NCBI GenBank assembly: GCA_937995675.1
Contig: CALKJE010000072.1
Coordinates: forward strand, 1 to 41,138
Source of the DNA: an uncultured Saprospiraceae bacterium
GTDB lineage: Bacteria; Bacteroidota; Bacteroidia; Chitinophagales; Saprospiraceae
Direction: 5' to 3'
Length of the DNA stretch: 41,138 nucleotides
How positions within the stretch are numbered: the stretch's first letter is position 1; every line of letters begins with the position of its first letter. Position numbers and translations under genes: made by a program. Below the pieces are notes generated by a model. That model was not told where the DNA came from and did not search any database. It saw nothing but the letters and a program-made list of their open reading frames with translations. Of this stretch, positions 8,460-41,138 are shown piece after piece.

Positions 8460-8537
8460 CTAAAAAAGAGAGGCTACTCGATTGTTCGAGTAGCCTCTTT
8501 TATTTAGAGATATTCAAATGATATCAATGATTATAAT
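8460..8537. repeat. direct repeat copy 2
   Basis: Near-identical to 6132..6213. Its right end reaches the stop codon (8531-8533) of the convergent lectin gene. Confidence 0.9.
8469..8506. terminator. bidirectional rho-independent terminator (inside repeat copy 2)
   Basis: Same 13-bp stem as copy 1, with loop ttgt instead of ttct. Serves the receiver gene (+) and the lectin gene (-). Confidence 0.85.
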
Positions 8538-10678
8538 CTACTGATCACAAACATTTTTGTCATTTGGCGTTTACCATCCAGTTTGATTCTTACGGTGTAA
8601 ACTCCAGGCTGATAATTTGGCATTTCAAATCTCACCACATCTTCCGTCAATGCATCAATAGAACGAGACTGCATTGGCTGTCCTAAACTATTGCTGATCA
8701 TAATCTCCGCAGACAATCCTTCGTAAGCACCTAAGCTTAGATTGATTTGGTCTAATGCAGGATTCGGATAAACAGAGAAGTCTTTGAGGTTCAAATCAAA
8801 TGAAACTTCTTTCACTTCAGAGTAGCGGTAAGTTCCATCCGCAAATATTTGCTTCAGTCTGTAATAGTTAACTCCTTCAGATGCATCTTCATCTTTAGCT
8901 TGATAATTTACATATTCTCGAGAATCACTGATACTCATCACTTCTTCTAGAATCTCAAAATTGATTCCATCTGTAGAAGTTTCCACTTCGAAATAATCGT
9001 TCTTATAATCTGTATTAGTTACCCAATTCATAGATACCTCACGATCATTCTTAACAGCATCGAAGTACAAGTAATCACTTTGCTGCGTAACCGAAGCCGT
9101 TGCACCTGGAGTACCCGCACAACCAAAGATTTTGATTTCGTCCAAATCCCATACTGCTAATCCAGTAGTTCCAGTCTGACGACAGTAACCTAGTAATTCG
9201 AATTGGAAGGTAGTTTGTCCAGTAAATACAAAGTCAGGATCATTTCCTAGATTAAACTGTTCATAACTCCAATTCTCTGTCGTATTTCTTCCCGTTTTTC
9301 GGTAGATCTCTTGACCATTCTTCAATACCCTCATTCCATAATGTGACGGTGGATCGTTATCACCGCTATTTCCACTAATGTGAGAATAGTAGTAAGGAGC
9401 TGCCTCATAAAAACTTAGCTTTGTTAAAGTAGCCGTTCCTCCATTTGTTGGTGCTACGGTAATAGAGAATTTAAAAGCATCATTGCTATTAGCTACAAAA
9501 CTACAAGAATTTCTAATTCCACTACAAATTGCGATACCACTTTGTCCTTCTGTACAAGAATGAACTCCATCATCATGAGATAGAATAGAAGCATTCACAA
9601 CAGAAAAACCTGATGGTGTATTAGTCACGGCTGTAAATTCACTAAAATCATTATTAGAACCATTACTTGAGAATGATTCACAAGCATCAAGATCCCAGTA
9701 AGCAATACGGGTAGGATTACAAACTTGGACTGGCGTACCAGCACAACCACAACCATCTGCAGTTACTACATCATTTTCGGTATCTGGATTACCATCATTA
9801 CAAGCACTTCCTGGTGTCGCTGGGAAACTTGGATTGTTTGGTTGACAGTCGTTGTTGTTACACACTCCGTCTCCATCTGAATCTCCTCCCTGTCCAGCAC
9901 ATGGAGCTGGAGCTGAATTTACCGTAACTGTGAATGAACAAGAAGCATCATTACCGCAATTATCTGTTGCTAAGTAGGTAATAGTAGTTGTTCCGATAGG
10001 AAAAAAAGAACCACTAGATAAGCCTGCTGTTTGATTTAAAGATACAACTCCAGGAGTCGTAGTAATTGGACATCTTTTTTCCATAACTACTTCATAATGG
10101 TCGTGTCCTTGTCGGTCTTTCCACTTTCCATCATTCTTAACCATTACAACATAATCAGAATTATTATAGTTATTTGGTTCGCCATGTGCCCAGTTAGTAT
10201 AAGAAGAATTAGCACCGTTTTGCCATACGAAATTACCTTCACTTGCTGCATCATTGTAACCAATCCAAGCATGCGAAGCAATCAGATTATTTTTAATAAA
10301 TTGATTTTCTCCGCTATTCCCCACAGTTAAAAGATATCCTCCTCGACTAATGGCAAGGTTCTTACCTTCATGCCAAGTGTAATTATTGGTACTTGAGCAC
10401 CAATACTTACTACCATTGTATTGTCCCATATAGGTAAAACCATTTGCACTATTGGAAAGTGCACCACAATTTGTTTGAGTGGTCGTACATTCAGTAGTTG
10501 GATTGGGAGTATTCCAGCTAACGATCGCTCCATTTGCACCAGCCTGTGCTTGAATTGTAATATTACTTGGGCAATTCAAGGAAATCCCAGTAAAATCCGG
10601 ATTAGATCCGGCATTTGCTGTCTGTTGCCAAAGCAAACAACAACACAAAAACGAAAAATAGTAAGTTATTCTTCTCAT
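8531..10678 (-). CDS. T9SS-secreted surface protein with HYR-like, C-type lectin and calcium-binding-like modules
   Basis: Trimmed to MRRITYYFSFLCCCLLWQQTANA (signal peptide). CTLD signature WIGYND...GNFVW...W..GEPNN...GKWKD. HYR-like TTITYLATDNCGNDASCSFTVTV. DSDGDGVCNNNDC. C-terminal FSVYPNPALDQINLSL...YTVRIKLDGK...FVISRL resembles a T9SS sorting domain. Confidence 0.8.
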   Translation of the reverse strand: MRRITYYFSFLCCCLLWQQTANAGSNPDFTGISLNCPSNITIQAQAGANGAIVSWNTPNPTTECTTTQTNCGALSNSANGFTYMGQYNGSKYWCSSTNNYTWHEGKNLAISRGGYLLTVGNSGENQFIKNNLIASHAWIGYNDAASEGNFVWQNGANSSYTNWAHGEPNNYNNSDYVVMVKNDGKWKDRQGHDHYEVVMEKRCPITTTPGVVSLNQTAGLSSGSFFPIGTTTITYLATDNCGNDASCSFTVTVNSAPAPCAGQGGDSDGDGVCNNNDCQPNNPSFPATPGSACNDGNPDTENDVVTADGCGCAGTPVQVCNPTRIAYWDLDACESFSSNGSNNDFSEFTAVTNTPSGFSVVNASILSHDDGVHSCTEGQSGIAICSGIRNSCSFVANSNDAFKFSITVAPTNGGTATLTKLSFYEAAPYYYSHISGNSGDNDPPSHYGMRVLKNGQEIYRKTGRNTTENWSYEQFNLGNDPDFVFTGQTTFQFELLGYCRQTGTTGLAVWDLDEIKIFGCAGTPGATASVTQQSDYLYFDAVKNDREVSMNWVTNTDYKNDYFEVETSTDGINFEILEEVMSISDSREYVNYQAKDEDASEGVNYYRLKQIFADGTYRYSEVKEVSFDLNLKDFSVYPNPALDQINLSLGAYEGLSAEIMISNSLGQPMQSRSIDALTEDVVRFEMPNYQPGVYTVRIKLDGKRQMTKMFVISRL

Positions 10679-11073
10679 GATTAAGTAAATTTTGATAGTT
10701 AAAAAAATAATAAAAAACGTGTATAGCCTTAACTCCAAAATGGAGAATACAGGTTCGATATTTGGAAAATGATAAATAATAACCAAGTCATTGAGCCATG
10801 ATCATCCATGTTCAATGAAGTTATTTTAACAGTTGTTTTTGGAACGGAATAGTAATTATGGCACCAAAGATGGCCGATCAGTTTTAAAAAAAACATTTAG
10901 ATTTGAGATAGAAATCACTCAAATCCAAAATGGACTAAATATTTGTTTGGCAAGAGGTGTTTAAACAATTAGATGAAAGTACCTAAAAAGGTATTTGTAT
11001 GTTTTTAAGACAAGAAAAGCATGAATATGTCACAAAAAAGACAATTATTTTGTTCAAAATTAAGTCTTTTTCT

Positions 11074-24929: not shown

Positions 24930-27900
24930 TTATCGTAAGCTAAGCAATTCTCTCAACTCGTCATTATCGTAATTTCCAATCCATTTCTCTCCATTGGCAA
25001 CGGTTAAGTTAGCCAGCTCTTTTTTTGATTGGAGCAACTCATTTATTTTTTCCTCAAAAGTTTGTTGAGTAATAAAACGATGGACCATGACATTTCGTTT
25101 TTGTCCAATCCGATAAGCACGATCAGTTGCTTGTGCTTCTGCAGCCGGATTCCACCATAAATCATAATGGATCACATTGCTGGCCTGCGTCAGATTCAAT
25201 CCTGTTCCTCCAGCTTTTAAAGAAAGAATCATCACCCGAGTAGAACGGTTATTTTGAAAATCATCTACCATCGCATCTCTCCCTTTTCGGTTGATACCAC
25301 CATGTAAAAACGATGCAGACAAACCAAAATTATCAGCCAATAATTCTTGCAACAAAGTACCCATCTGTTGGTATTGTGTAAAGATCAAAGTCTTTTCTCC
25401 GTTGTCCAAAATCTGTTGTAACAACTGAAATAACAACATCGTCTTACCTGATAGATTCGCCGCTTTATCTCCTTTTTTCAAATATTGATAAGGATGATTA
25501 CAAATTTGTTTAAGTGCGGTAATCAGCATCAACACCAATCCTTTTCTTTCTGCACCTTCTGCGGTTTCTACTCGTTTCAATGTTTTGTCTACTACATTTT
25601 GATAGATCGCGGCTTGCTCAGGAGTTAGCTGACAATACTGATCTTGTTCTATTTTTTCAGGTAAATCTTTAATAATAGATTTATCGGATTTTACCCGACG
25701 CATAATAAACGGTCCCGTAATTTTTTTAAATTTTTCCAACTTCACTAAATCACGATCTGCTTCGATAGGTTTTGCGTATTCGTCTTTAAATTTTTTCAAG
25801 GTTCCGAGATATCCTTTATTGGCAAAATCAAAAACACTCCAGTATTCACTCATTCGATTTTCTACTGGTGTTCCACTCATTGCTATTTTAATTGGAACCT
25901 TAATTTTCTTAATCGCTTTAGTTTGTGCGGTCGCTGGATTCTTAATATTCTGCGCTTCGTCAATCACCATAATCAACCAATGGTATCGTTGCAGTTTGGC
26001 TACTTCTCCACGTGCCACGCCGTAAGTTGTCAAAAGTACATCCGCCTCTTCAATCGGTGCAAGTTTTCGATTAGCACCGTGGTAGATATGCGTGATTAAT
26101 TCTGGCCCAAACTTTTTAATTTCTTTATCCCAATTGGTCAATAAAGTGGTCGGCACCACCACCAATGCTTTTTGCTCATCCAGCCTACCCTCTTCTTTCA
26201 ATTTTAGTAAAGTCGTAATCACTTGCAATGTTTTACCAAGCCCCATATCATCGGCGAGCAAACTACCAAATCCCAGTCTCGTGTTTTTATATAACCATTC
26301 ATAACCTTTTTGTTGATAAGGTCGCAGCGTTGCTTCCAAACTGATCGGTGGCTCTATGGTTTCTGACTTAAGCAACTCATCCATCAGTGCTCGTAACTCT
26401 GGCGTCAATTCTATACCCGCCCCTTTATACTCATCTGCTAAAGCGATTTGTAAAAGTTCGTGTCCGCTTAATTCCGGAGGATTTTCTAATGCTTGAATTA
26501 GCTTAGTAATTTCTGCTTCATCAAAAAAGAGATATTGATTTTGATAGCGAACGATTCCTTTAAAACGCCTGATCATTTTTAAAAACTCCTCTCTCGAAAT
26601 CGTGGTATCTCCTAACGCTACTCGCCAGTCAAAATCTAGGAGTTCATCTAAATTAACCAGTGACTTTTTCTTAACCACTCCTGAATTTTCTGCAGAGACC
26701 TTCATGGATAATTGCGGCTTGAGAATTTTCCGCAAAGCTTTCGGCAAGACTACTTTAATTCCAAACAATCGAATGGTTGGTAATATTTTAAATAGGATAT
26801 CTACAAATTCTATTTCATCAAAAAGTAATGGAACTTTACCTTTTAATTTAACCAAGTCTCCTATTCCTGAAAAATATTCAGAGAGCATGGCGAGATCTCG
26901 CAGTGCATCCATTCGAATATCGGCGTACTGCTTTTTTTCTAATAATGCTTTAAGGCCAAAAACAGGTCTGGTCTTTTTTCGTTTGTCTTCAAAAGCAACT
27001 TCCACAGCAAACCCTTCTTCGGAATCATCTACTTTTATAACTGGAACAAAATCTTTCTCAATGATATAAAATTTATTTAACCATAATTGAATCGCAATTG
27101 GATAGTCCTTGATTTCGTAGTCATTGAACGATTCTGATTTTTGATTAAAAAATAATTGCACCACTTCTATTGGCCAAAGTCGATCTTTGACTTTAGCATT
27201 TTTAGTCACTAAACCTGTTAGAAAAATACTTGTTAAAGCGGTAAAAAAATCAGCAGCAATCGGTTGTTTTATTTTTGTTCTAGCTTTATAGAATAGTATA
27301 TTTTCAGGAACAAGTGCTTCCACCAAATCATGGAGGTTTTTCACAATAGGATTTAATAGTGCAGGAATCCAACGAATGATATACTGTTCTTTTTCATCTA
27401 CCAAAAGCTGTGGAATAATGGCTCCTTTTTTCGCCAATTGCTTGGCATAGACCCAAGCTATCCACAACCCACGTAATCCCGGCGCGTACTGTTGGACACG
27501 AAGAAAAGACAAGGTATCTAACCAATTTATTAAATCCTCTATTTTTCCAAAATTAAATAGGACCTCACCCTTTTTATCGCGAAAGCTAACATCCAAAAAC
27601 GATCCTTTTTCAGAAAGGATAATTTCTAAATCTTCAATCGAATCTTTTTGAATATCGAGCGCAGTTGAAGGTGTTTCAGAGGTCGTACTTTTTTGTAAAT
27701 TCTTCGTTAACTGATCATAATTTGCAGATAATATTTTTTTAAAATTACCTGCCGGAAAGAAAACAGGTTGATCAGAAAGAATGGCCATCAGATCTTCCTT
27801 TAGCGAAGGAATGACAGAAAAATCAATTTGGTCCAAACTTAATCTGGGTTGTTTCCTAGTTCGAGTCTCTTCTGTCAAATCTTCCCAAAGTCGGGACAGT

Positions 27901-28448
27901 GAAAGGATACGAATGTCTTGGTGTTCTTGGGTTGTATAACCTGCTTTTCTAAGCGCTTCGAACAAATCAAATTTGTGTAATTCAAAAACCAGAAACGGAT
28001 TTTGATCGATCTCATTAGCAGTAAGATAGAGCACTGCAGCCATGTGTTTACAAGGAACTGCCCAATCGGGACAAGAGCAACTACCTTCGAGGTCATTCCA
28101 AGAATCAGGAAAAAGTGCGACGCCTTTTCTAGCACAAAGTTCCTTCAGTTCTGGTGGTAGTTGTCTATTAAGTAGTGCCGACAAATGCATTGGATGCTCA
28201 ATGACTGCTTCTACGATTTTTGCTTTTTCTTTATTTGAAAAAGGTGGAATGGTAAAGGAGACTTTATAAGGATGATATTGACTACCTTGAACATTAGCAG
28301 AGATTTCATTGCCTGCAATTTCGATATCACTAGCCAATCCTTTATTTGCATAGGTACGACCACGAGGCAAGCGGTTAGAAAAATCAATTCGGTTTAACGA
28401 ATTCAGCCATTGCTTTCCCCACCAAGTATTTCCGTAAGATTTTCTCAT
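24930..28448 (-). CDS. SNF2-family helicase with an N-terminal SWIM zinc finger
   Basis: 1172 aa. SWIM CSCPDWAVPCKHMAAV. SNF2 motifs LRPYQQKGYEWL, LADDMGLGKTLQ, DEAQNIKN, then helicase-C (LSLKAGGTGLNLT, WWNPAAEAQATDRAYRIGQ). Confidence 0.9.
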   Translation of the reverse strand: MRKSYGNTWWGKQWLNSLNRIDFSNRLPRGRTYANKGLASDIEIAGNEISANVQGSQYHPYKVSFTIPPFSNKEKAKIVEAVIEHPMHLSALLNRQLPPELKELCARKGVALFPDSWNDLEGSCSCPDWAVPCKHMAAVLYLTANEIDQNPFLVFELHKFDLFEALRKAGYTTQEHQDIRILSLSRLWEDLTEETRTRKQPRLSLDQIDFSVIPSLKEDLMAILSDQPVFFPAGNFKKILSANYDQLTKNLQKSTTSETPSTALDIQKDSIEDLEIILSEKGSFLDVSFRDKKGEVLFNFGKIEDLINWLDTLSFLRVQQYAPGLRGLWIAWVYAKQLAKKGAIIPQLLVDEKEQYIIRWIPALLNPIVKNLHDLVEALVPENILFYKARTKIKQPIAADFFTALTSIFLTGLVTKNAKVKDRLWPIEVVQLFFNQKSESFNDYEIKDYPIAIQLWLNKFYIIEKDFVPVIKVDDSEEGFAVEVAFEDKRKKTRPVFGLKALLEKKQYADIRMDALRDLAMLSEYFSGIGDLVKLKGKVPLLFDEIEFVDILFKILPTIRLFGIKVVLPKALRKILKPQLSMKVSAENSGVVKKKSLVNLDELLDFDWRVALGDTTISREEFLKMIRRFKGIVRYQNQYLFFDEAEITKLIQALENPPELSGHELLQIALADEYKGAGIELTPELRALMDELLKSETIEPPISLEATLRPYQQKGYEWLYKNTRLGFGSLLADDMGLGKTLQVITTLLKLKEEGRLDEQKALVVVPTTLLTNWDKEIKKFGPELITHIYHGANRKLAPIEEADVLLTTYGVARGEVAKLQRYHWLIMVIDEAQNIKNPATAQTKAIKKIKVPIKIAMSGTPVENRMSEYWSVFDFANKGYLGTLKKFKDEYAKPIEADRDLVKLEKFKKITGPFIMRRVKSDKSIIKDLPEKIEQDQYCQLTPEQAAIYQNVVDKTLKRVETAEGAERKGLVLMLITALKQICNHPYQYLKKGDKAANLSGKTMLLFQLLQQILDNGEKTLIFTQYQQMGTLLQELLADNFGLSASFLHGGINRKGRDAMVDDFQNNRSTRVMILSLKAGGTGLNLTQASNVIHYDLWWNPAAEAQATDRAYRIGQKRNVMVHRFITQQTFEEKINELLQSKKELANLTVANGEKWIGNYDNDELRELLSLR

Positions 28449-28487: not shown

Positions 28488-29009
28488 TTACCTTTTTTTC
28501 TTCTTTTTCTTATTTCGCTTTTGCCAAAATTTCCAATTGATTTTTTTCTTCTTTTTCTTAATAAGAATAAAACGGAGACTGATTCCAGTTTGATGATAAA
28601 TGCTATTGCGTCCACCAGACAAATTGATGGCTGGTTTATAATCCCAAGACAAAACCGTATTCTTCATCGCGAATTCTAATCCACCAATAAAAGTGACACC
28701 ATAAGGATTATCGAATCCTTCTCTATTATCAATCCAACCGATGTGGGGACCAACTCCTACATAATAATTGAATCGTCTCGAAAGAATTTTTCGATGATTT
28801 TCAAATAAAAGCGTCAAAGCAGATTCATTGGCTTTGGGATGAAAAGTCAAAATACCTTCGATCGTATTCTGGCCCCAAAGCACTTGCTGGACGGATAGTC
28901 CAAAGGGACTTCCGAGTCGTAATCCTGCAGCAGTTCGATAGCGTTGTGCCGACAGTGAAGTAGTCCAAAATAGACCAATCAAGAAAATGAAAATGATATT
29001 TTTATTCAT
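28488..29009 (-). CDS. small outer-membrane beta-barrel-like protein with a polylysine C-terminal tail
   Basis: Signal peptide MNKNIIFIFLIGLFWTTSLSAQ and alternating beta-strand patterns. A barrel-like terminal strand GISLRF is followed by ILIKKKKKKINWKFWQKRNKKKKKKR. Confidence 0.55.
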   Translation of the reverse strand: MNKNIIFIFLIGLFWTTSLSAQRYRTAAGLRLGSPFGLSVQQVLWGQNTIEGILTFHPKANESALTLLFENHRKILSRRFNYYVGVGPHIGWIDNREGFDNPYGVTFIGGLEFAMKNTVLSWDYKPAINLSGGRNSIYHQTGISLRFILIKKKKKKINWKFWQKRNKKKKKKR

Positions 29010-29200: not shown

Positions 29201-30616
29201 ATGAAAAGATTTTTCATTCTGGCAGTGGTATTTTCAACACTCGCCTTCACCATTAGTAGACCAACCGTCTCTAACTTTATTTTCACTACGGTCAATGACG
29301 TTCCGGACTTACCGGATACTCCTTATGACTATTCAGATATTACTTTTCCCGATCATCTGCTCAATGCTCAAGATGACACCATCGACCTTGGATACGAAGG
29401 TGGTGGTATTGATAGTTTATCTTTTGCAGATATTACTGACAACGGTGCTACCTTAGGACGTGTCTTATTTTACGATAAGAAGTTATCGTCTCTTGAGACC
29501 ATGTCTTGTGCCACCTGTCATAATCAAGCGATGTCTTTCGCAGAAAATAAAGCAGTAAGTGATGGACTAACCGCTCCGACATTAAGAAACTCTATGCACC
29601 TTAATGATATTGCCTGGACCAATAAAGAACATTTCTTTTGGGACATGAGTGAATCTGATTTAAGAACCATGATTCGTTTGCCCTTAACCGACGAAAACGA
29701 AATTGGAGCCGATATGGATGATGTTGCAGAAAAACTTGGAGCAACTAGTTATTATCCACAATTGTTTACAGAAGCTTTCGGTGATCCAGTTATTACGGAA
29801 GATCGAATTGCAGAGGCACTCGTACAGTTTATCTCTTCCATGACGACCTTCAATTCTCGATTTGATCAAGAGGCCGCTAATAATTTTGCTGGCTTTACTA
29901 CCCAAGAGCAATTAGGACTTGATCTCTTTTCTACCAACTGTAATAATTGTCACAGTCAAGGCGGACACAGTGTTTTTGGAGACATCTTTCCTGCTGATAT
30001 TCCTATTTTAGAAATCTTTCCTTTTATCTTCAACAATGGATTACCAGAGGATCCAGAAGATTCGGGTGCTGGTAATTGGGAACCTGGATTTAGCAATTTA
30101 TTCAAAATTCCTACTTTACGAAATATTGATCTAACGGCTCCATATATGCACGACGGTCGTTTTGAAACCCTGGAAGAGGTTGTTGACCACTATTCTGATG
30201 AAGTAGAAGAAAACGAATGGACCGCAGGATTTTTCCCTCCTGGAGGTTTTGATTTTACAGACTCGGAAAAAGAAGCGATGGTGGCGTTCTTGAAAACACT
30301 AACCGACGAATCTTTTTTAACCGAACCAAGATGGTCTGATCCTTTCGGACTTGAAACCGATATAGAAAATTTTTCCATTGAGAATCTCATCATTCGTCCT
30401 AATCCAACACGTGACGTCGCCGTTATCGAATATGATAATCCAACTAATGAATTGGTAACTTTCCATGTTTTCTCCGCTGACGGAAAGCTAGTACTGAACG
30501 AAAATACGCGTAGTGATCGTTACACACTTGACAAAGGTATCTTCCACCCTGGAACTTATTTTATTGAGGTGCTGATGGACGACAAAAAGAGTACTGCAAA
30601 GCTGATGGTCCAATAA
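29201..30616 (+). CDS. di-haem cytochrome c peroxidase (CCP/MauG family) with a T9SS-type C-terminal domain
   Basis: Two CxxCH motifs (CATCH at 29507-29521, CNNCH). PYMHDGRF Met-ligand region. C-terminal IIRPNPTRDVAVIEY...GTYFIEVLMDDKKSTAKLMVQ resembles a T9SS sorting domain. Confidence 0.8.
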   Translation: MKRFFILAVVFSTLAFTISRPTVSNFIFTTVNDVPDLPDTPYDYSDITFPDHLLNAQDDTIDLGYEGGGIDSLSFADITDNGATLGRVLFYDKKLSSLETMSCATCHNQAMSFAENKAVSDGLTAPTLRNSMHLNDIAWTNKEHFFWDMSESDLRTMIRLPLTDENEIGADMDDVAEKLGATSYYPQLFTEAFGDPVITEDRIAEALVQFISSMTTFNSRFDQEAANNFAGFTTQEQLGLDLFSTNCNNCHSQGGHSVFGDIFPADIPILEIFPFIFNNGLPEDPEDSGAGNWEPGFSNLFKIPTLRNIDLTAPYMHDGRFETLEEVVDHYSDEVEENEWTAGFFPPGGFDFTDSEKEAMVAFLKTLTDESFLTEPRWSDPFGLETDIENFSIENLIIRPNPTRDVAVIEYDNPTNELVTFHVFSADGKLVLNENTRSDRYTLDKGIFHPGTYFIEVLMDDKKSTAKLMVQ

Positions 30617-34579: not shown

Positions 34580-35827
34580 TTGGAAAACAATCTATTACTC
34601 GACGTTGAAACTTATGCTGTTAACTTCATTACCCGTAATGTTCCAAAAGATTATGCCTTTCACGATCTGCAACATACTATTATTGTTGTAGAGGCTGCCC
34701 ACAAAATTGGGAAGGCGATGAACCTTAATGAAGACGATCTGGAAATACTACAAATCGCCGCTTGGTTTCATGATATGGGCTATGATAAAGGAAAAGAAGG
34801 CCATGAAGAAAGAGGTTGTGAATATGCTGCAAACTTTTTGAAGCCTTTAAATTATCCAGCTGATAAATTAGAAAAGATCCAAAAATGTATCCGCGCGACC
34901 CACCTTAATCATACACCACAAACAGACTTAGAAAGAATCATCTGTGATGCAGACCTCAGTCATCTTGGTCGGAGAAACTATTGGGATCGTTGTCAACGTG
35001 TTAGACAAGAAATTGCTATTACACGAGATACGGTAATGACGGATGAAGAATGGGTAAGTTTCGAACTTGGCTTTATGCAGGCGCACTCTTTCAATACGCA
35101 AATTGCACAAGAATTATACGGTGCACGTAAAAATAAACATATCCAAAAACTTGAGCGTCGACAAAAAAAGTATACCAAACAATCAAATCCTGACACTCCG
35201 AATAATTTGCCAGTCCGCGCTAAAAAAAATAAAAAGAAAAAGAAACCTTCTTATGCAGATCTTGCGAGTAAGAATAATTCTGGCAATATCAACCTAAAAG
35301 AAATCAACCTAGGACGAGGAGTAGAGACGATGTATCGAACTACCTATCGAACGCATATTAACCTTAGTTCTATTGCAGATAATAAAGCGAATATCATGCT
35401 TAGTATCAATGCTATTATTGTCTCTATTACGCTTTCAACCCTTGTCCCTAAATTTGAGGACATTCCAAATTTAGTCATCCCAACGGTGGTCCTACTATTG
35501 GTTTGTTTAGTCGCTATTATCTTTGCCACCCTTTCTACCCGACCCAAAATTACGGAAGGTCGATTTACTCGAAAGAACATCGAAGAACGAAATGCTAATT
35601 TACTTTTCTTTGGTAATTTCTATAATATGAGTCTCGATGATTATCATTGGGGAATGTTGGAAATGATTAAGGATGAGGATTTCTTGTATAGTTCAATGAC
35701 TCGCGATCTTTATTATTTAGGAATCGTATTGGCAAAAAAGTATCGTTACCTAAGTTACTGCTACGCTGTATTTATGTATGGTTTAATTCTGGCGGTCATT
35801 ACTTTCGCGATTGTTTTTATTGCTTAG
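34580..35827 (+). CDS. HD-domain phosphohydrolase fused to a C-terminal two-helix membrane domain (DUF5706/PycTM-like)
   Basis: HD signature FHDLQHT...AAWFHDMGY...CDADLSHLG, then a K-rich linker (KKNKKKKKP). Next come GVETMYRTTYRTHINLSSIADNKANIML and two TM helices. TTG start: it is the first start-type codon after in-frame stops at 34523 and 34526. Confidence 0.7.
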   Translation: MENNLLLDVETYAVNFITRNVPKDYAFHDLQHTIIVVEAAHKIGKAMNLNEDDLEILQIAAWFHDMGYDKGKEGHEERGCEYAANFLKPLNYPADKLEKIQKCIRATHLNHTPQTDLERIICDADLSHLGRRNYWDRCQRVRQEIAITRDTVMTDEEWVSFELGFMQAHSFNTQIAQELYGARKNKHIQKLERRQKKYTKQSNPDTPNNLPVRAKKNKKKKKPSYADLASKNNSGNINLKEINLGRGVETMYRTTYRTHINLSSIADNKANIMLSINAIIVSITLSTLVPKFEDIPNLVIPTVVLLLVCLVAIIFATLSTRPKITEGRFTRKNIEERNANLLFFGNFYNMSLDDYHWGMLEMIKDEDFLYSSMTRDLYYLGIVLAKKYRYLSYCYAVFMYGLILAVITFAIVFIA

Positions 35828-36179: not shown

Positions 36180-37208
36180 TCAGGATTCATTGGCTTCAAT
36201 TCGATGTGCCATTCGCTGGATAGCTTCAATAATTGCTTCTAAGGCAGGTGGATAATCTACATATTGTACCTTATGGCGGTCTTTTCCCCAAATACTCAAG
36301 GTGATTACCTTTTTCTTTTTTCCATAAGCAATCGCCAATCGAAGCGGGATCGGACGAGGTTTTTCTTGTTTTCTTTTTTGGCAGATACTATTGTCACAAT
36401 CATAGATTCGCTCTAGTTCAAAGAATCCTTTTTTGTCTACAAATTCGGCAAAAGCTTCTAGTTCTTCTCTCGGAATATCCTTGCGAGTAACATTCAGCCC
36501 TTTACTAACTGTTTTAAATTCTTTGATTAAACGACCATCACTTTTGATATGAATATAATCTCTTAACACCGGATCAATACCGCCATAATAACCGCCACCG
36601 ATCAATTCGATGTTAATATAGACTCGGTCTTCTTTATATTTTTTTCGTTTCTTTTTCTTCTTCTTTCGTTTTTTTGATTTACGTTTTACAAAGCTAAAAA
36701 GTCCTCCACTCTTTTTCTTTTCATCCATTTCTACAATAACATCAGGCAGTTCATTTGCAGGTTTGATAAAAGGAGCATCTTTGCTTTCTACTTTTACAAA
36801 ATGATATTGATACGTCCCTTTACTATTGGGCTGCGTAAATTCTAGAATAAGTCGGTTCCGACTCAATTCTGCTACCACAAACTTTTTAATGTGTTTAAAA
36901 CTATAGATAAGTTCTCTATCTTCTACCTTAAATCTACCTTTGGTCAAGCGACCATTCAGATATTGCTGATAGGTATAATTGTATCGAAAATAAAGATAAT
37001 ATTCGTAGAAGTTTTCTGCTTTGTGAATAGTTGTATTAGATTCTAGATGGATCGCATAAGTATATTTCCACTTAGATTCTAAAAGCCGACGCTCCTCTAC
37101 TTCTCCAAAACTTCCTCTAGCATTAGCCCTACTATTATCTTGCTGTGCATGTACATCCACAGCAAAGAATCCGATAAATATCAGTAGTAAAGCTAGAAGC
37201 TTTCTCAT
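36180..37208 (-). CDS. hypothetical secreted two-domain protein with a polybasic linker
   Basis: Signal peptide MRKLLALLLIFIGFFAVDVHAQ. Central FVKRKSKKRKKKKKKRKKYK. No family recognised. Confidence 0.6.
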   Translation of the reverse strand: MRKLLALLLIFIGFFAVDVHAQQDNSRANARGSFGEVEERRLLESKWKYTYAIHLESNTTIHKAENFYEYYLYFRYNYTYQQYLNGRLTKGRFKVEDRELIYSFKHIKKFVVAELSRNRLILEFTQPNSKGTYQYHFVKVESKDAPFIKPANELPDVIVEMDEKKKSGGLFSFVKRKSKKRKKKKKKRKKYKEDRVYINIELIGGGYYGGIDPVLRDYIHIKSDGRLIKEFKTVSKGLNVTRKDIPREELEAFAEFVDKKGFFELERIYDCDNSICQKRKQEKPRPIPLRLAIAYGKKKKVITLSIWGKDRHKVQYVDYPPALEAIIEAIQRMAHRIEANES

Positions 37209-37369: not shown

Positions 37370-38884
37370 CTAGAATCGATAGCCAAAAGTAAATAGTATT
37401 CTATTACTTGCTAACTTTCGATTCACCAGTTGTTCTGCACTATTATCTCGTAAATTATAAGGAGAATACTCTGATTCTGTGATTCCTCTAACATACGCTA
37501 GATCCAAATAATATCGATCCGCTCGAAAACCTCCTCCTAAACTAATCCTACTACGAGATCCATCACGGTCAGAATAAGCACTTCCCAACCAATTGTATCC
37601 TGCTCTCACCAAAAAGCGTTGGATCATGTATTCCGCACCTACTCTAATATTCAAAGCAGATTGTAACTCATTATCAATATCTCCATTAGCCACATCTCCT
37701 CGGTCTGTATCAAAAACACTATTTCCATCCTTATCCAAATTATAAGAACTGCCAGCATAATTAACATACTCTACCTCTGCAGATAATAATCCGACCTTAG
37801 GAATAACCAATCCTCCACTACCAATAAAACGCCAAGGTGTTCGAAAACCATAATCAATATCTCTAGGTTCTGCTGGAATTCCTCTTCCTGATATAGTCTG
37901 GTCCAATTCAGTATATGTATAGTCTATACTAGTATCGTAGTAATCTGTTAATCTGTAAAAGGTAGGTGAATGTACCGCCGCACCAATTCTAATCTTTGGA
38001 GTAGGCCAATAAATCATTCCTATCTTTAAATTGATTCCTATCCCATCGGTACTTAAAGTATCCGTAAATTGTAAGCTTTCAAAAAAAGGAATATTCCCAT
38101 CAAACTCCGTCCCTGGATCAAACTCCTCGTATTCTCTAGATTGAGCATATCTTAAGAATGGAATCCCTAATGTTCCACCAATCAAAAACTTATTTCGATA
38201 ATTCCCTGCTAAAGATAGAGACAATTCCTTAATAGATCCTTCCCGTTCTAGACTTTGCAATCGTTGTACTTCAGCACCTGGTTCTGCCTCCTCAAAATCA
38301 TTAAAGTATCTTAAGTTATCATCATCATCTAAGAAATCACCAATTGCAAATGCATCAAATGCAGGTCCTGCCAAAAAATCATCCAACTGTTGCGCTGGTA
38401 TTCCTAATCCATCTGGTCCAGTAGCCAGTTCTAAAAACTGATCTGCCATCGAACCAGAAGATCGTCCTTCAAAATCAAAATTCTCTTTAAAATCTGCTAT
38501 CCGATTATAACCAATCGCAAAATTCGACGTTCTCCATTTTCCTCTAGGTCTTGAATTTAAGACGATCCCTACATTACTAAAATTAAAGGTCGACGCATTC
38601 TCACTTTGTGAATCATTCCTTCCACCCAAGGTTCCAGTAGATCTTCGTAAATCAAAAGAAGGGGTAATACTAAATTCAGAACTTCGGTAAATAGCCAATC
38701 CCGCAGGATTTACATTCACCACCGAAAATTCACCTCCTAAAGCACTCATTCCACCACCGATACCAGCCATTCGGGCAGTACTAGCAGATTCGGTCTGGCT
38801 AAAACGTAAAGCATCACTAATTGATTGAGCAGAAAGAAAAGTGGTGATGCTAAAGGTCAATAAAATTAAAATGATATTTTTCAT
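37370..38884 (-). CDS. outer-membrane beta-barrel protein, FadL/PorV-like
   Basis: Trimmed to MKNIILILLTFSITTFLSAQ. N-terminal ARMAGIGGGMSALGGEFSVVNVNPAGLAIY resembles the FadL-family hatch motif. Alternating strands throughout, and C-terminal FTFGYRF is a beta-signal. Confidence 0.6.
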   Translation of the reverse strand: MKNIILILLTFSITTFLSAQSISDALRFSQTESASTARMAGIGGGMSALGGEFSVVNVNPAGLAIYRSSEFSITPSFDLRRSTGTLGGRNDSQSENASTFNFSNVGIVLNSRPRGKWRTSNFAIGYNRIADFKENFDFEGRSSGSMADQFLELATGPDGLGIPAQQLDDFLAGPAFDAFAIGDFLDDDDNLRYFNDFEEAEPGAEVQRLQSLEREGSIKELSLSLAGNYRNKFLIGGTLGIPFLRYAQSREYEEFDPGTEFDGNIPFFESLQFTDTLSTDGIGINLKIGMIYWPTPKIRIGAAVHSPTFYRLTDYYDTSIDYTYTELDQTISGRGIPAEPRDIDYGFRTPWRFIGSGGLVIPKVGLLSAEVEYVNYAGSSYNLDKDGNSVFDTDRGDVANGDIDNELQSALNIRVGAEYMIQRFLVRAGYNWLGSAYSDRDGSRSRISLGGGFRADRYYLDLAYVRGITESEYSPYNLRDNSAEQLVNRKLASNRILFTFGYRF

Positions 38885-38943: not shown

Positions 38944-38978
38944 TAAAAAAAGTGGGTGAAAATAAATCCACCCACTCT
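38944..38978 (-). terminator. rho-independent terminator after the low-complexity gene
   Basis: The minus strand reads agtgggtg-gatttatttt-cacccact followed by T7. Confidence 0.7.
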
Positions 38979-39004
38979 TTTCGCTTATGCGAATTTAGCA
39001 AAGA

Positions 39005-40057
39005 TTAATTACCTCTGCGGCTTGAACTTCTTCGGCTGCTACCAGAAGAAGATCTGCTGCTTCGAGAAGGAGAAGCACTGCTTCGAGAGCTACTTCGAGA
39101 AGAACTAGATCTTGCACTACTTCGTCGCTGTGTGCGTGGTGCAGTTCTAGTACTACTTCGACTTGAGTTACTACGGCTGTTAAAGATGCTAGAACGCTTC
39201 TTTGTAGCACGACTGTTAGAACGAGTAGCAGGAGAAGAACTTCTAGTACTGCTTCGTCGAGTAGCGCGGCTGTTACCTCTAGAAGTATTACCTCTATCGT
39301 TTCCAACACTATTTCTTCTAGACTTACTTGTCACACGCTTATTACGAGTTACGCCGTCATTTGTACGACCACCTACGTTGCTGTTGTTACCAGGTCCGTA
39401 GTTACCTCGTGCATTGCTATTATTGTTTGTTGCTCTGCTCGTGAAAGTAGAACCGCTTCCGCTCCAAGAAGGAGGACAGTAGGCATTTCCGCCTCCATAA
39501 CTATTGGCAAATCCGCCACCACCGAAACCGTTTCCAAAGTTATTCCCATAACGATTATATGGATTGTTGAATCCATTATTAAATCGGTTATATGGGTTAT
39601 ATGGATTGAATCGGTTACGGAAAGGACTAAATCCTCTGTATCGGTTACGATTTCCAATAATAATCGTCACTCCATTGTTTCCAAAGGCGTTATAAGGATT
39701 ATAGAATCCATTATTAAAATTAGAAGCATAAATCGCACGACCAGGTACGCCATAACGATCATAGTAGTAACTATCTACGTAAGCTGGCGAGTAAAAGCCA
39801 AATCCAGCGTATGGACGTTGGAATCGACGAATTCGCGAAGTATAATAATAATCGTAATCATCATCATCGTAGCTTGCTGAATCAAAGTCATCATCTTCTG
39901 AATCCTGTTCATCATAATCATCGTAAGAAGTTTCGTAGACATCCTCTGTATCAGTGGAAGGATCAAAATAAACGTCGTCGTACTGCGCAATCGCGGTAGC
40001 TCCGAATCCAAAAAGGAAAAGGGCGACTAAAAAGGTTGATAATCTATACATTTTCAT
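39005..40057 (-). CDS. secreted tri-block low-complexity protein (acidic D/Y, then N/G/F/Y/P, then Ser/Arg-rich)
   Basis: 350 aa. Signal peptide MKMYRLSTFLVALFLFGFGATAIA. Residues 25-74 have 18 D, 4 E, 10 Y and no K/R. Residues 75-207 are N/G/F/Y-rich with a duplicated FNNGFxNPYN..GNN unit. Residues 255-350 have 24 R, 2 K and no D/E. It has its own terminator. Confidence 0.7.
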   Translation of the reverse strand: MKMYRLSTFLVALFLFGFGATAIAQYDDVYFDPSTDTEDVYETSYDDYDEQDSEDDDFDSASYDDDDYDYYYTSRIRRFQRPYAGFGFYSPAYVDSYYYDRYGVPGRAIYASNFNNGFYNPYNAFGNNGVTIIIGNRNRYRGFSPFRNRFNPYNPYNRFNNGFNNPYNRYGNNFGNGFGGGGFANSYGGGNAYCPPSWSGSGSTFTSRATNNNSNARGNYGPGNNSNVGGRTNDGVTRNKRVTSKSRRNSVGNDRGNTSRGNSRATRRSSTRSSSPATRSNSRATKKRSSIFNSRSNSSRSSTRTAPRTQRRSSARSSSSRSSSRSSASPSRSSRSSSGSSRRSSSRRGN

Positions 40058-40275
40058 AAAAAATAAGTTTTAATGTAATTATGTGACTCTCTTACAAGTT
40101 ACAAGTACAATTTATTACTTTTGTGGCTATTTTTTAGTTAAAAAACCATTAAAGTTGAATTTTTATTTTCAAAAGTCGGTTTAGTAACAAATAAACAACC
40201 TTAAAAACACTATTAAGACGCTATAAGTTTAATTTGCGTCACTATATAAAATTTAATAATTCGTTAAAATTGTAA

Positions 40276-41138
<863 letters not shown>

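Follow-up and report, generated by a model that had tools for sequence, protein, structure and literature searches.

Which protein is encoded beside proS in an uncultured Saprospiraceae bacterium, and with what partner might it work in the cell envelope? The question is raised by the open reading frame (ORF) 39005-40057(-) of a 41,138-nt stretch of DNA (the full length of which is referred to as the window), whose product was given the working name X. A sequence-only reading of the window had described X as a stand-alone secreted protein, consisting of a signal peptide and three low-complexity blocks that differ in charge and composition, and had considered extracellular roles such as a functional amyloid, a matrix or adhesive, or a binder of mineral or polyanion. 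Comparative analysis gave X another setting. X belongs to a family, so far undescribed and spread across the Bacteroidota, whose members are exported by Sec, predicted to be disordered, and marked by conserved short linear motifs; across at least four orders, the X gene is paired with a gene for an outer-membrane barrel of the FadL fold. We are highly confident that X is a genuine member of this new barrel-linked family. The coordinates of all elements are summarized in Table 1.

The X family and its conserved motifs

A word-index search with X returned 73 relatives (300-510 aa), all lacking a functional name, and, with one genome scanned for each GTDB species, relatives were located in at least 387 species. 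In an exhaustive phmmer search with residues 1-226, 216 representatives (50% clustering) were matched, each of them aligning in register from the N-terminus. The order of elements in the family is as follows: signal peptide, QYDDvYYDP motif, acidic/Tyr block, DYDYYYTSRIRRFhRPyxGFgYYDPvYVDxxYYDP..PG core, aromatic/Asn/Gly/Arg block (often with WNRWN), YCPPsWG, YYGPR, and a basic Ser/Thr/Arg tail ending in ..RRG(G)N. Among 74 relatives, D27 of the N-terminal motif is invariant and Q25, D28, Y30, and P33 are present in at least 90%; Y72, R75, and R78 of the core are invariant, and F79 and Y99 occur in at least 90%. The overall charge is conserved together with the motifs: the acidic head is net negative and the tail net positive in 127/127 relatives each (medians of -16 and +30, respectively), and the middle block is kept near 117 aa with approximately 35 aromatic residues. 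X itself carries all of the features by which we propose to recognize the family, namely, a signal peptide (of the lipoprotein type in other members), DD[ILV]Y[YF], the acidic block, the Y-x-SRIRRF-h-x-P..YYDP core, the aromatic/Gly/Asn block, the basic Ser/Thr/Arg tail with an Arg-rich end, and a FadL-fold barrel encoded downstream.

Neither Pfam nor NCBIfam gave a match with X, with the 74 relatives, or with 36 distant homologues. A profile search of PDB returned only a compositional match, to the Ser/Arg-rich mL77. The homologue from Pontibacter (WP_161889768.1) is entered in RefSeq as "hypothetical protein", with the same outcome in cluster look-ups, and no description of the family was found in the literature, which was also searched with the motif string SRIRRF. 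The earlier statement that X belongs to no recognized family was, therefore, borne out. PG534 of Porphyromonas gingivalis, considered as a lead to the family, was dropped because nothing supported it.

Pairing with a barrel gene

Gene order in the window is divergent proS, X, and then a barrel gene on the strand of X. The genome-locus counts given here rest on the best 80 loci, mostly from metagenome-assembled genomes (MAGs) of Saprospiraceae and Lewinellaceae, 70 of which had enough downstream sequence for evaluation. The barrel gene directly followed X in 67 of these 70 Saprospiraceae/Lewinellaceae loci, with a median gap of 143 nt. The order of proS, an unannotated protein of 391-523 aa, and a barrel was also found in the genome of Pontibacter russatus (Cytophagales), in one from Marinifilum, and in a Tenuifilaceae MAG (Bacteroidales). 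One divergent subfamily has three genes inserted between proS and X, with the X-barrel pair intact. When a metagenome scan was seeded with the barrel, 50 loci extended far enough upstream to be judged; an X-like gene was found directly upstream in 49 of them, at gaps as short as 6-33 nt, and divergent proS lay beyond X in 31/35. We use "phylum-wide" for the four named lineages together with diverse, taxonomically unassigned metagenome contigs. X is, therefore, encoded by the first gene of a pair conserved across the phylum, and the view of it as a stand-alone product lost support. Saprospiraceae, Pontibacter, Marinifilum, and Tenuifilaceae all retain divergent proS; the proS/X intergenic region (40058-40287 in the window) measures 100-500 nt in related loci, in which the divergent order is kept.

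The strong terminator that had been ascribed to X was confirmed by folding, which gave a hairpin of -24.4 kcal/mol followed by a U-run between X and the barrel gene. A comparable hairpin and T-run were found in 12 of 13 Saprospiraceae/Lewinellaceae X-barrel intergenic regions, with compensatory changes in the stems: the pairs GTGGGTGG/CCACCCAC, GTGGATG/CATCCAC, and GAGGCGG/CCGCCTC were seen among the intergenic regions of loci L002-L079. A consensus terminator scan missed the hairpin at 38947-38980(-), apparently because loops were limited to 3-8 nt.

Properties of the partner barrel

AlphaFold2 modelled the barrel as a complete FadL-type fold with its hatch, at a predicted local distance difference test score (pLDDT) of 91.5, and of approximately 90 for the hatch. 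In Foldseek, BamG of Bacteroides thetaiotaomicron was the top match, FadL of Escherichia coli and Pseudomonas aeruginosa were near, and BamG of Flavobacterium johnsoniae and P. gingivalis were also near the top (template modelling (TM) score of 0.5-0.68 for the leading matches and 0.52-0.68 for BamG; E = 1e-14 to FadL and BamG). Structural likeness to BamG was equal to that for FadL and TodX. A far weaker match (TM 0.31/0.41) was obtained with type IX secretion system (T9SS) chain 8gl6_F, which we take to be PorV. The 14-stranded barrel, N-terminal hatch, and NPA motif of the FadL/OmpP1/TodX superfamily are all present; the NPAG sequence is invariant or nearly so among barrel homologues, and strong conservation is also seen at the start of the mature protein (Q-x3-DALR[YF]S). 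The Toluene_X score of the window barrel was 25.2, below the cutoff of 29.7, and many homologues carry this domain (PF03349).

Two more specific assignments were rejected. Against the BamG model of NCBIfam, the window barrel scored 24.8 bits and the Marinifilum barrel 27.5 bits, with a cutoff of 250, and the BamG chains in PDB were not among the matches of a barrel profile at E <= 1, which picked up P. aeruginosa FadL and TbuX alone. PorV or PorQ was rejected because PorV_fam gave 43 bits against a cutoff of 90. The barrel is approximately 80 residues longer than the FadL/TodX/TbuX channels. Relative to FadL, it has an Asp/Glu-rich insertion of approximately 60 residues (residues ~146-205, ..DDFLAGPAFDAFAIGDFLDDDDNLRYFNDFEEAEPGAE..), modelled as short helices and strands. 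We take its N-terminus to be approximately 7 residues longer before the NPA motif than that of E. coli FadL, which recalls the N-terminal extension of BamG.

Reading frame and selection

The ratio of non-synonymous to synonymous substitution rates (dN/dS) of X, computed against five orthologues from related Saprospiraceae MAGs, was 0.10-0.20 overall and 0.05-0.27 across the blocks: the signal peptide and acidic block gave 0.05-0.20, the core 0.05-0.13, and the tail 0.16-0.27. Purifying selection, thus, acts on each of the three blocks of X. Even so, X changes faster than the neighbouring genes: identity to locus L003 is 71% for X compared with 79% (barrel), 93% (next gene), and 98% (ProRS).

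Frame-breaking indels, which would have pointed to a by-product of a low-complexity DNA tract, were not seen in relatives; all indels among orthologues preserve the frame, and X retains its C-terminal end, ..SSSRRGN. The duplicated unit of approximately 17 aa described earlier is present (12/17 residues and 34/51 bases identical); however, it is not a conserved unit, because this region varies among orthologues by in-frame gain or loss of GFNN/NPY-like units. Tandem Repeats Finder detected a single 9-nt x 2.1 repeat in the gene. Ser in the tail is encoded by mixed codons (AGT15/TCT15/AGC13/TCA2), and Arg by four. ORFs of approximately 90-104 aa in alternative frames overlap X (38995-39309(-), 39132-39401(+), and 39373-39657(-)), as is common in compositionally biased DNA, and would lend some colour to a non-functional X. 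They are themselves by-products of the biased composition, and only the 350-aa frame was supported by comparison. With the low dN/dS, the conserved termini and motifs in hundreds of relatives, and the lack of meaningful DNA repeats, there is practically no chance that X is such a by-product; the comparative data already refute it. The homology and synteny check proposed with the sequence-only reading, thus, identified X as a genuine protein with frame and block order conserved, and more than 200 relatives share the architecture.

Composition and charge blocks

On recounting, the three blocks, the signal peptide, the GFGGGGF stretch, and all residue counts given from the sequence were exact. 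Residues 25-74 contain 18 Asp, 4 Glu, and 10 Tyr, with neither Lys nor Arg; residues 75-207 contain 23 Asn, 22 Gly, 17 Tyr, 15 Phe, 13 Arg, and 10 Pro; and the last 96 residues contain 40 Ser, 24 Arg, and 2 Lys, with neither Asp nor Glu. As a correction to the earlier description, two Asp are located within residues 208-254. The reported segregation of charge was clear: 22 of 26 acidic residues come before the first basic residue, and kappa was 0.38 compared with 0.19 +/- 0.025 in 2000 shuffles, none of which reached it (permutation p < 1e-5).

The gene had also been regarded as GC-rich, and its GC content is 42.3% compared with 35.8% in the window; however, this is not a special or foreign mark. 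The excess is confined to codon position 2 (0.57), and GC at position 3 (0.288) is within the range of the neighbour genes (0.24-0.35). The difference is, therefore, due to the Ser/Arg/Gly content, and horizontal transfer was ruled out as its source. AlphaFold2 with a 74-sequence alignment predicted X to be fully disordered (mean pLDDT of 47.9), with no secondary structure beyond the signal peptide and no beta-rich core.

Lipoprotein-type homologues

Homologues outside Saprospiraceae are mostly lipoproteins with a lipobox (e.g., ..LLAVGC and ..FLTASC). Distant homologues carry a [DE]D[ILV]Y[YF] motif 8-20 residues past the Cys; DD[ILV]Y[YF] was found in 37/38, most of them lipoproteins. This is followed by an acidic region, often the ..NNYY..Y-x-SRIRRFH-x-P..YYDP core, an aromatic/Gly-rich block, often YYGPRR, and a basic Ser/Thr/Gly tail closing with ..GRR, RRR, or GRGN. 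Profile-profile alignment by hhalign of 74 signal-peptide-type with 36 distant sequences gave a probability of 99.9% (E = 3e-35), covering the signal peptide, N-terminal motif, and core. X of the window has no lipobox Cys near the cleavage site, which reads A-I-A|Q.

The criterion of surface export for BAM (beta-barrel assembly machinery) lipoproteins of B. thetaiotaomicron is two or more Asp or Glu within six residues after Cys (PMC12578637). At least two acidic residues in these six positions were found in 0/32 lipoprotein-type homologues, which speaks for the periplasmic side of the outer membrane rather than for an extracellular matrix. The extracellular placement proposed earlier was weakened accordingly by the type of protein that most non-Saprospiraceae homologues are.

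Proposed role and alternatives

PorV and BamG, the characterized FadL-fold proteins of Bacteroidota that we came across in the literature, are platforms for protein docking rather than channels (for BamG, PMC12611786 and PMC12578637). By analogy, we propose that X works together with its barrel. Our preferred reading, with a rough probability of 0.4, is that X is a disordered envelope protein located with the barrel at the periplasmic face of the outer membrane, its basic tail directed inward. A lipid anchor would keep X at this face in most lineages; since the lipobox is replaced by AxA|Q in Saprospiraceae, QYDDvYYDP and the core YYTSRIRRFhRP..YYDP would there take over the docking of X on the barrel. 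The acidic Asp/Tyr head would lie near the membrane, and the aromatic/Arg middle block and basic Ser/Arg tail would reach into the periplasm and may bind anionic envelope polymers (peptidoglycan, or the head groups of phospholipid or lipopolysaccharide (LPS)). Alternatively, the middle block and tail may pair with the acidic heads of neighbouring X molecules. The outcome would be a brush- or gel-like structural layer. Judging from the charge blocks, polyanion binding or self-coacervation is physically plausible. The conserved terminator after X suggests that X is made in excess over the barrel, like a structural subunit relative to its anchor.

Several points weigh against this proposal. The X-barrel complex is putative, as it is drawn from gene pairing and analogy; we infer the localization solely from absent signals, and composition is the source of both the supposed affinity of the tail for peptidoglycan, lipid, or LPS and the brush or gel behaviour. 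The terminator between X and the barrel argues against strict co-expression. The adjacency of proS is conserved as well, and a functional link of proS to X is unlikely; therefore, part of the synteny could be inertia. Three loci of the Saprospiraceae type (L009, L042, and L050) have X without the barrel downstream, and an M28 peptidase or esterase gene follows X in its place; at L050, a gene of the PD-(D/E)XK transposase family also sits between proS and X. No orthologue from the model organisms B. thetaiotaomicron, P. gingivalis, or F. johnsoniae was present among the 120 barrel-profile matches listed, all of which were from MAGs or little-studied genera.

A more far-reaching reading makes X and its barrel a hitherto unrecognized, phylum-wide envelope system with a more active part for the barrel: it would display, thread, or export X, and X would build a polyelectrolyte layer resembling a condensate or gel, within the periplasm or at the surface. 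We regard this as doubtful. The strongest of the rival explanations, in which X crosses the outer membrane through the barrel, by displacement of the hatch or by threading, to become a surface or matrix protein outside the cell (adhesive, coacervate, amyloid-like, or binding polyanion, extracellular DNA (eDNA), or mineral), is unlikely. A chain that never folds would suit passage through a narrow barrel, and the combination of Tyr/Trp/Phe, Arg, and Asn/Gly with blocks of opposite charge resembles phase-separating sequences. Operons in which the gene of a major subunit precedes that of its outer-membrane assembly protein exist, and the present order of subunit gene, terminator, and barrel gene is similar to them. 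The known partners of PorV, PorQ, and BamG are also located on the cell surface. However, the FadL hatch is complete in the barrel model (pLDDT ~90), and polypeptide export by a FadL-fold protein would be without precedent, since we know of no such exporter. Other evidence against a surface matrix is the lack of the acidic export signal in lipoprotein-type homologues and the lack of the T9SS C-terminal domain in X, in contrast to two other proteins of the window. The absence of curli, Fap, and T9SS features and of a beta-rich core in the AlphaFold2 model also weakened the idea of an amyloid-like middle block. Extracellular amyloid or adhesive roles are, thus, less likely than periplasmic placement, and an amyloid, adhesive, or mineral-related role is pure conjecture.

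It is distinctly unlikely that the barrel is a true FadL-type channel for hydrophobes or lipids and X its periplasmic accessory, serving as a substrate acceptor or chaperone by the aromatic block or as a gate regulator by the N-terminal motif. The fold, hatch, and NPAG are intact, the barrel is structurally as close to TodX and to the FadL proteins of E. coli and P. aeruginosa as it is to BamG, many barrel homologues have Toluene_X, and the aromatic-rich middle block of X is constrained in length. Nevertheless, to our knowledge, no FadL transporter requires a partner protein, it is not obvious what a basic tail of 130-345 aa would do in the handling of lipids, and genes for lipid or aromatic catabolism are not consistently linked, the flanking genes varying by lineage. 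Even less weight is given to an X that acts by itself, as a periplasmic polyelectrolyte, crowder, or peptidoglycan binder, beside a barrel gene retained through inherited order without coupling. This would accommodate the equally conserved proS, the intervening terminator, and the three loci lacking the barrel; on the other hand, same-strand adjacency persists across several orders while other flanks change, and inertia alone rarely produces pairing in 49/50 and 67/70 loci, with gaps as short as 6-33 nt, at the depth of a phylum. The least probable of these proposals links the pair to BAM: a BamG-like barrel and X would act with or beside this machinery, X being a disordered holdase or an aromatic mimic of beta-strands. 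The Foldseek ranking, headed by BamG of B. thetaiotaomicron with the F. johnsoniae and P. gingivalis proteins near the top, the weak NCBIfam match to BamG, the conserved mature N-terminus that recalls the BamG extension, and a phylum-wide spread like that of BamG and BamH are in line with this proposal. It is opposed by the BamG equivalog scores of 24.8-27.5 bits against 250, by the failure of the barrel profile to retrieve BamG chains, and by the absence of X, which is unrelated to BamH, among the BAM subunits of two reported structures.

Comparison with known systems

The periplasmic reading of X and its barrel may be compared with several known systems, and by analogy the two would work most like a barrel-partner pair of Bacteroidota, such as BamG/BamH or PorV with T9SS cargo. 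BamG and BamH of the Bacteroidota BAM are distributed phylum-wide, and BamG2 and BamH2 are encoded in a putative operon (PMC12611786, PMC12578637). These pairs share with X and its barrel a 14-stranded barrel of the FadL fold as a docking platform (putative for X), a partner (lipo)protein, and phylum-wide distribution. However, BamH is a folded surface lipoprotein with an export signal, whereas X is predicted to be disordered, lacks this signal, and is unlipidated in Saprospiraceae; furthermore, likeness of the barrel to BamG is structural only (25 bits against the 250-bit cutoff). PorV and PorQ are likewise FadL-superfamily barrels of Bacteroidota that bind protein partners and do not transport small molecules, with a weak PorV_fam match of the window barrel, and the partners of PorQ are found at the cell surface. 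They differ from the present pair in family score (43 versus 90) and structure (TM 0.31/0.41), and X has no T9SS C-terminal sorting domain (Por_Secre_tail, type A/B) according to Pfam and NCBIfam. FadL, TodX, and TbuX have the fold, N-terminal hatch, and NPA(G) in common with the barrel, which differs in its co-encoded partner, greater length, and acidic insertion; we know of no obligate co-encoded protein partner of these channels.

RcsF, which threads through OmpA/C/F, and LpoB, which reaches through peptidoglycan, embody the same concept in Proteobacteria, namely, an outer-membrane tether with a long disordered segment that spans the envelope or is associated with a barrel. These proteins have no sequence kinship with X and, in contrast to it, have folded end domains without a charge-block architecture. 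Curli (CsgA/CsgG) and Fap (FapC/FapF) also combine an exported low-complexity, Asn/Gly-rich protein with an adjacent gene for an outer-membrane protein. Curli are defined by curlin repeats together with csgB/csgEFG, and Fap by FapC repeats together with the FapF barrel. Pfam detected no curlin repeats in X or the 74 relatives; no csgB/csgEFG was found beside X by Pfam/NCBIfam, its neighbours being the FadL-fold barrel, a family-less secreted protein, and proS; and no family match indicated FapC-type repeats or FapF at the locus, where the partner barrel matches FadL and BamG structures. The two systems differ from that of X, the partner of which has a hatch-plugged FadL fold and which itself has no predicted beta structure. 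The last 96 residues of X contain 24 SR/RS dipeptides; however, likeness to eukaryotic Arg/Ser (RS) domains, and of the Tyr/Phe and Arg "stickers" in the middle block to FUS-like Tyr/Arg domains, is compositional only. Pfam detected no RNA-recognition motif (RRM) or other domain in X, which, unlike nuclear SR proteins, bears a signal peptide.

Significance

The outer membrane of Bacteroidota is organized around pairs of barrels and lipoproteins, including SusCD, BamGH, and the T9SS shuttles, and several of its basic processes are still being worked out. The X-barrel pair appears to be conserved over several orders beside proS, yet has neither a name nor a model in Pfam or NCBIfam, and X is probably the sign of an envelope component that awaits description. 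Selection on charge blocks, block lengths, and a few short motifs in a (predicted) disordered protein is unusual for bacteria and for envelope proteins. If the complex is real, it would add a fourth partner-binding role to the FadL fold in Bacteroidota, and X would offer a tractable bacterial example of an extracytoplasmic polyampholyte or "sticker-spacer" protein under selection. If display or export applies instead, the FadL fold would have a new use, and X would be a new kind of structural envelope component, selected on composition and motifs, not fold. The question is directly testable because cultured carriers exist: Flavilitoribacter nigricans DSM 23189 has the signal-peptide form and Pontibacter russatus the lipoprotein form.

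Other features of the window

Table 1. Positions of X, its elements, and neighbouring genes in the window.
Feature	Position	Strand	Basis or remarks
Coding sequence of (predicted) disordered exported protein X	39005..40057	-	ATG start, 350 aa + stop (39005-39007); ORF list, in-frame indels, >200 relatives
Type I signal peptide, residues 1-24, A-I-A|Q	39986..40057	-	Sequence; sole helix of AlphaFold2 model
N-terminal linear motif QYDDVYFDP, residues 25-33	39959..39985	-	Conservation in relatives; aligned in profile-profile match
Acidic Asp/Tyr block, residues 25-74, net charge -22	39836..39985	-	Composition, charge, dN/dS 0.05-0.20
Conserved core DYDYYYTSRIRRFQRPYAGFGFYSPAYVDSYYYDRYGVPGRAIYAS, residues 67-112	39722..39859	-	Invariant residues, dN/dS 0.05-0.13, hhalign 99.8-99.9% to lipoprotein-type homologues
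Aromatic/Asn/Gly/Arg block, residues 75-207	39437..39835	-	Composition; length held in relatives
Two 17-18-aa units within middle block of X	39671-39721 and 39533-39586	-	Residues 113-129 and 158-175
GFGGGGF of X, residues 177-183	39509-39529	-	Sequence
AYCPPSWSGSG of X	39452-39484	-	YCPPxWG motif in family consensus
Basic Ser/Thr/Asn/Arg tail, residues 208-350, net charge +33, end SSSRRGN	39008..39436	-	Composition, dN/dS 0.16-0.27; Arg-rich end shared throughout the phylum
NYGPG in tail of X, degenerate copy of family YYGPR motif	39386-39406	-	Sequence
Intrinsic terminator or attenuator hairpin + U-run, between X and barrel gene	38947..38980	-	dG -24.4 kcal/mol, z = -5.1
Outer-membrane barrel cognate to X (504 aa), fold of FadL/BamG type, hatch at N-terminus, NPAG (residues 59-62)	37370..38884	-	AlphaFold2 pLDDT 91.5, Foldseek, synteny
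Third gene, secreted 342-aa protein, family-less	36180..37208	-	No Pfam/NCBIfam match; lineage-restricted companion
proS, 5' part (prolyl-tRNA synthetase)	40288..41138	+	Pfam tRNA-synt_2b; 98-99% identical to closest MAGs; divergent from X

The third gene follows the barrel in 28/65 Saprospiraceae loci, with dN/dS of 0.02-0.05 and 90-93% identity to relatives. It is absent at that position in Pontibacter, Marinifilum, and Tenuifilaceae and, judged by this distribution, does not belong to the phylum-wide module.

A large SNF2-family helicase with a SWIM zinc finger and DUF3670 is encoded at 24930-28448(-), followed by a small family-less ORF at 28488-29009. The 415-aa product of 34580-35827(+) has an N-terminal HD phosphohydrolase domain and a C-terminal PycTM domain (Pycsar effector, E = 1e-33), and is 87-89% identical in related MAG loci. 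No adjacent cyclase was seen in a domain scan, and the protein could be a defence effector that responds to cyclic nucleotides, of an orphan or variant type. The gene at 29201-30616(+) encodes a di-haem cytochrome c peroxidase (CCP_MauG) that carries a C-terminal T9SS sorting domain and would, with this domain, be secreted or located at the surface, and a second T9SS cargo, with C-type lectin and HYR domains, is encoded at 8531-10786(-).

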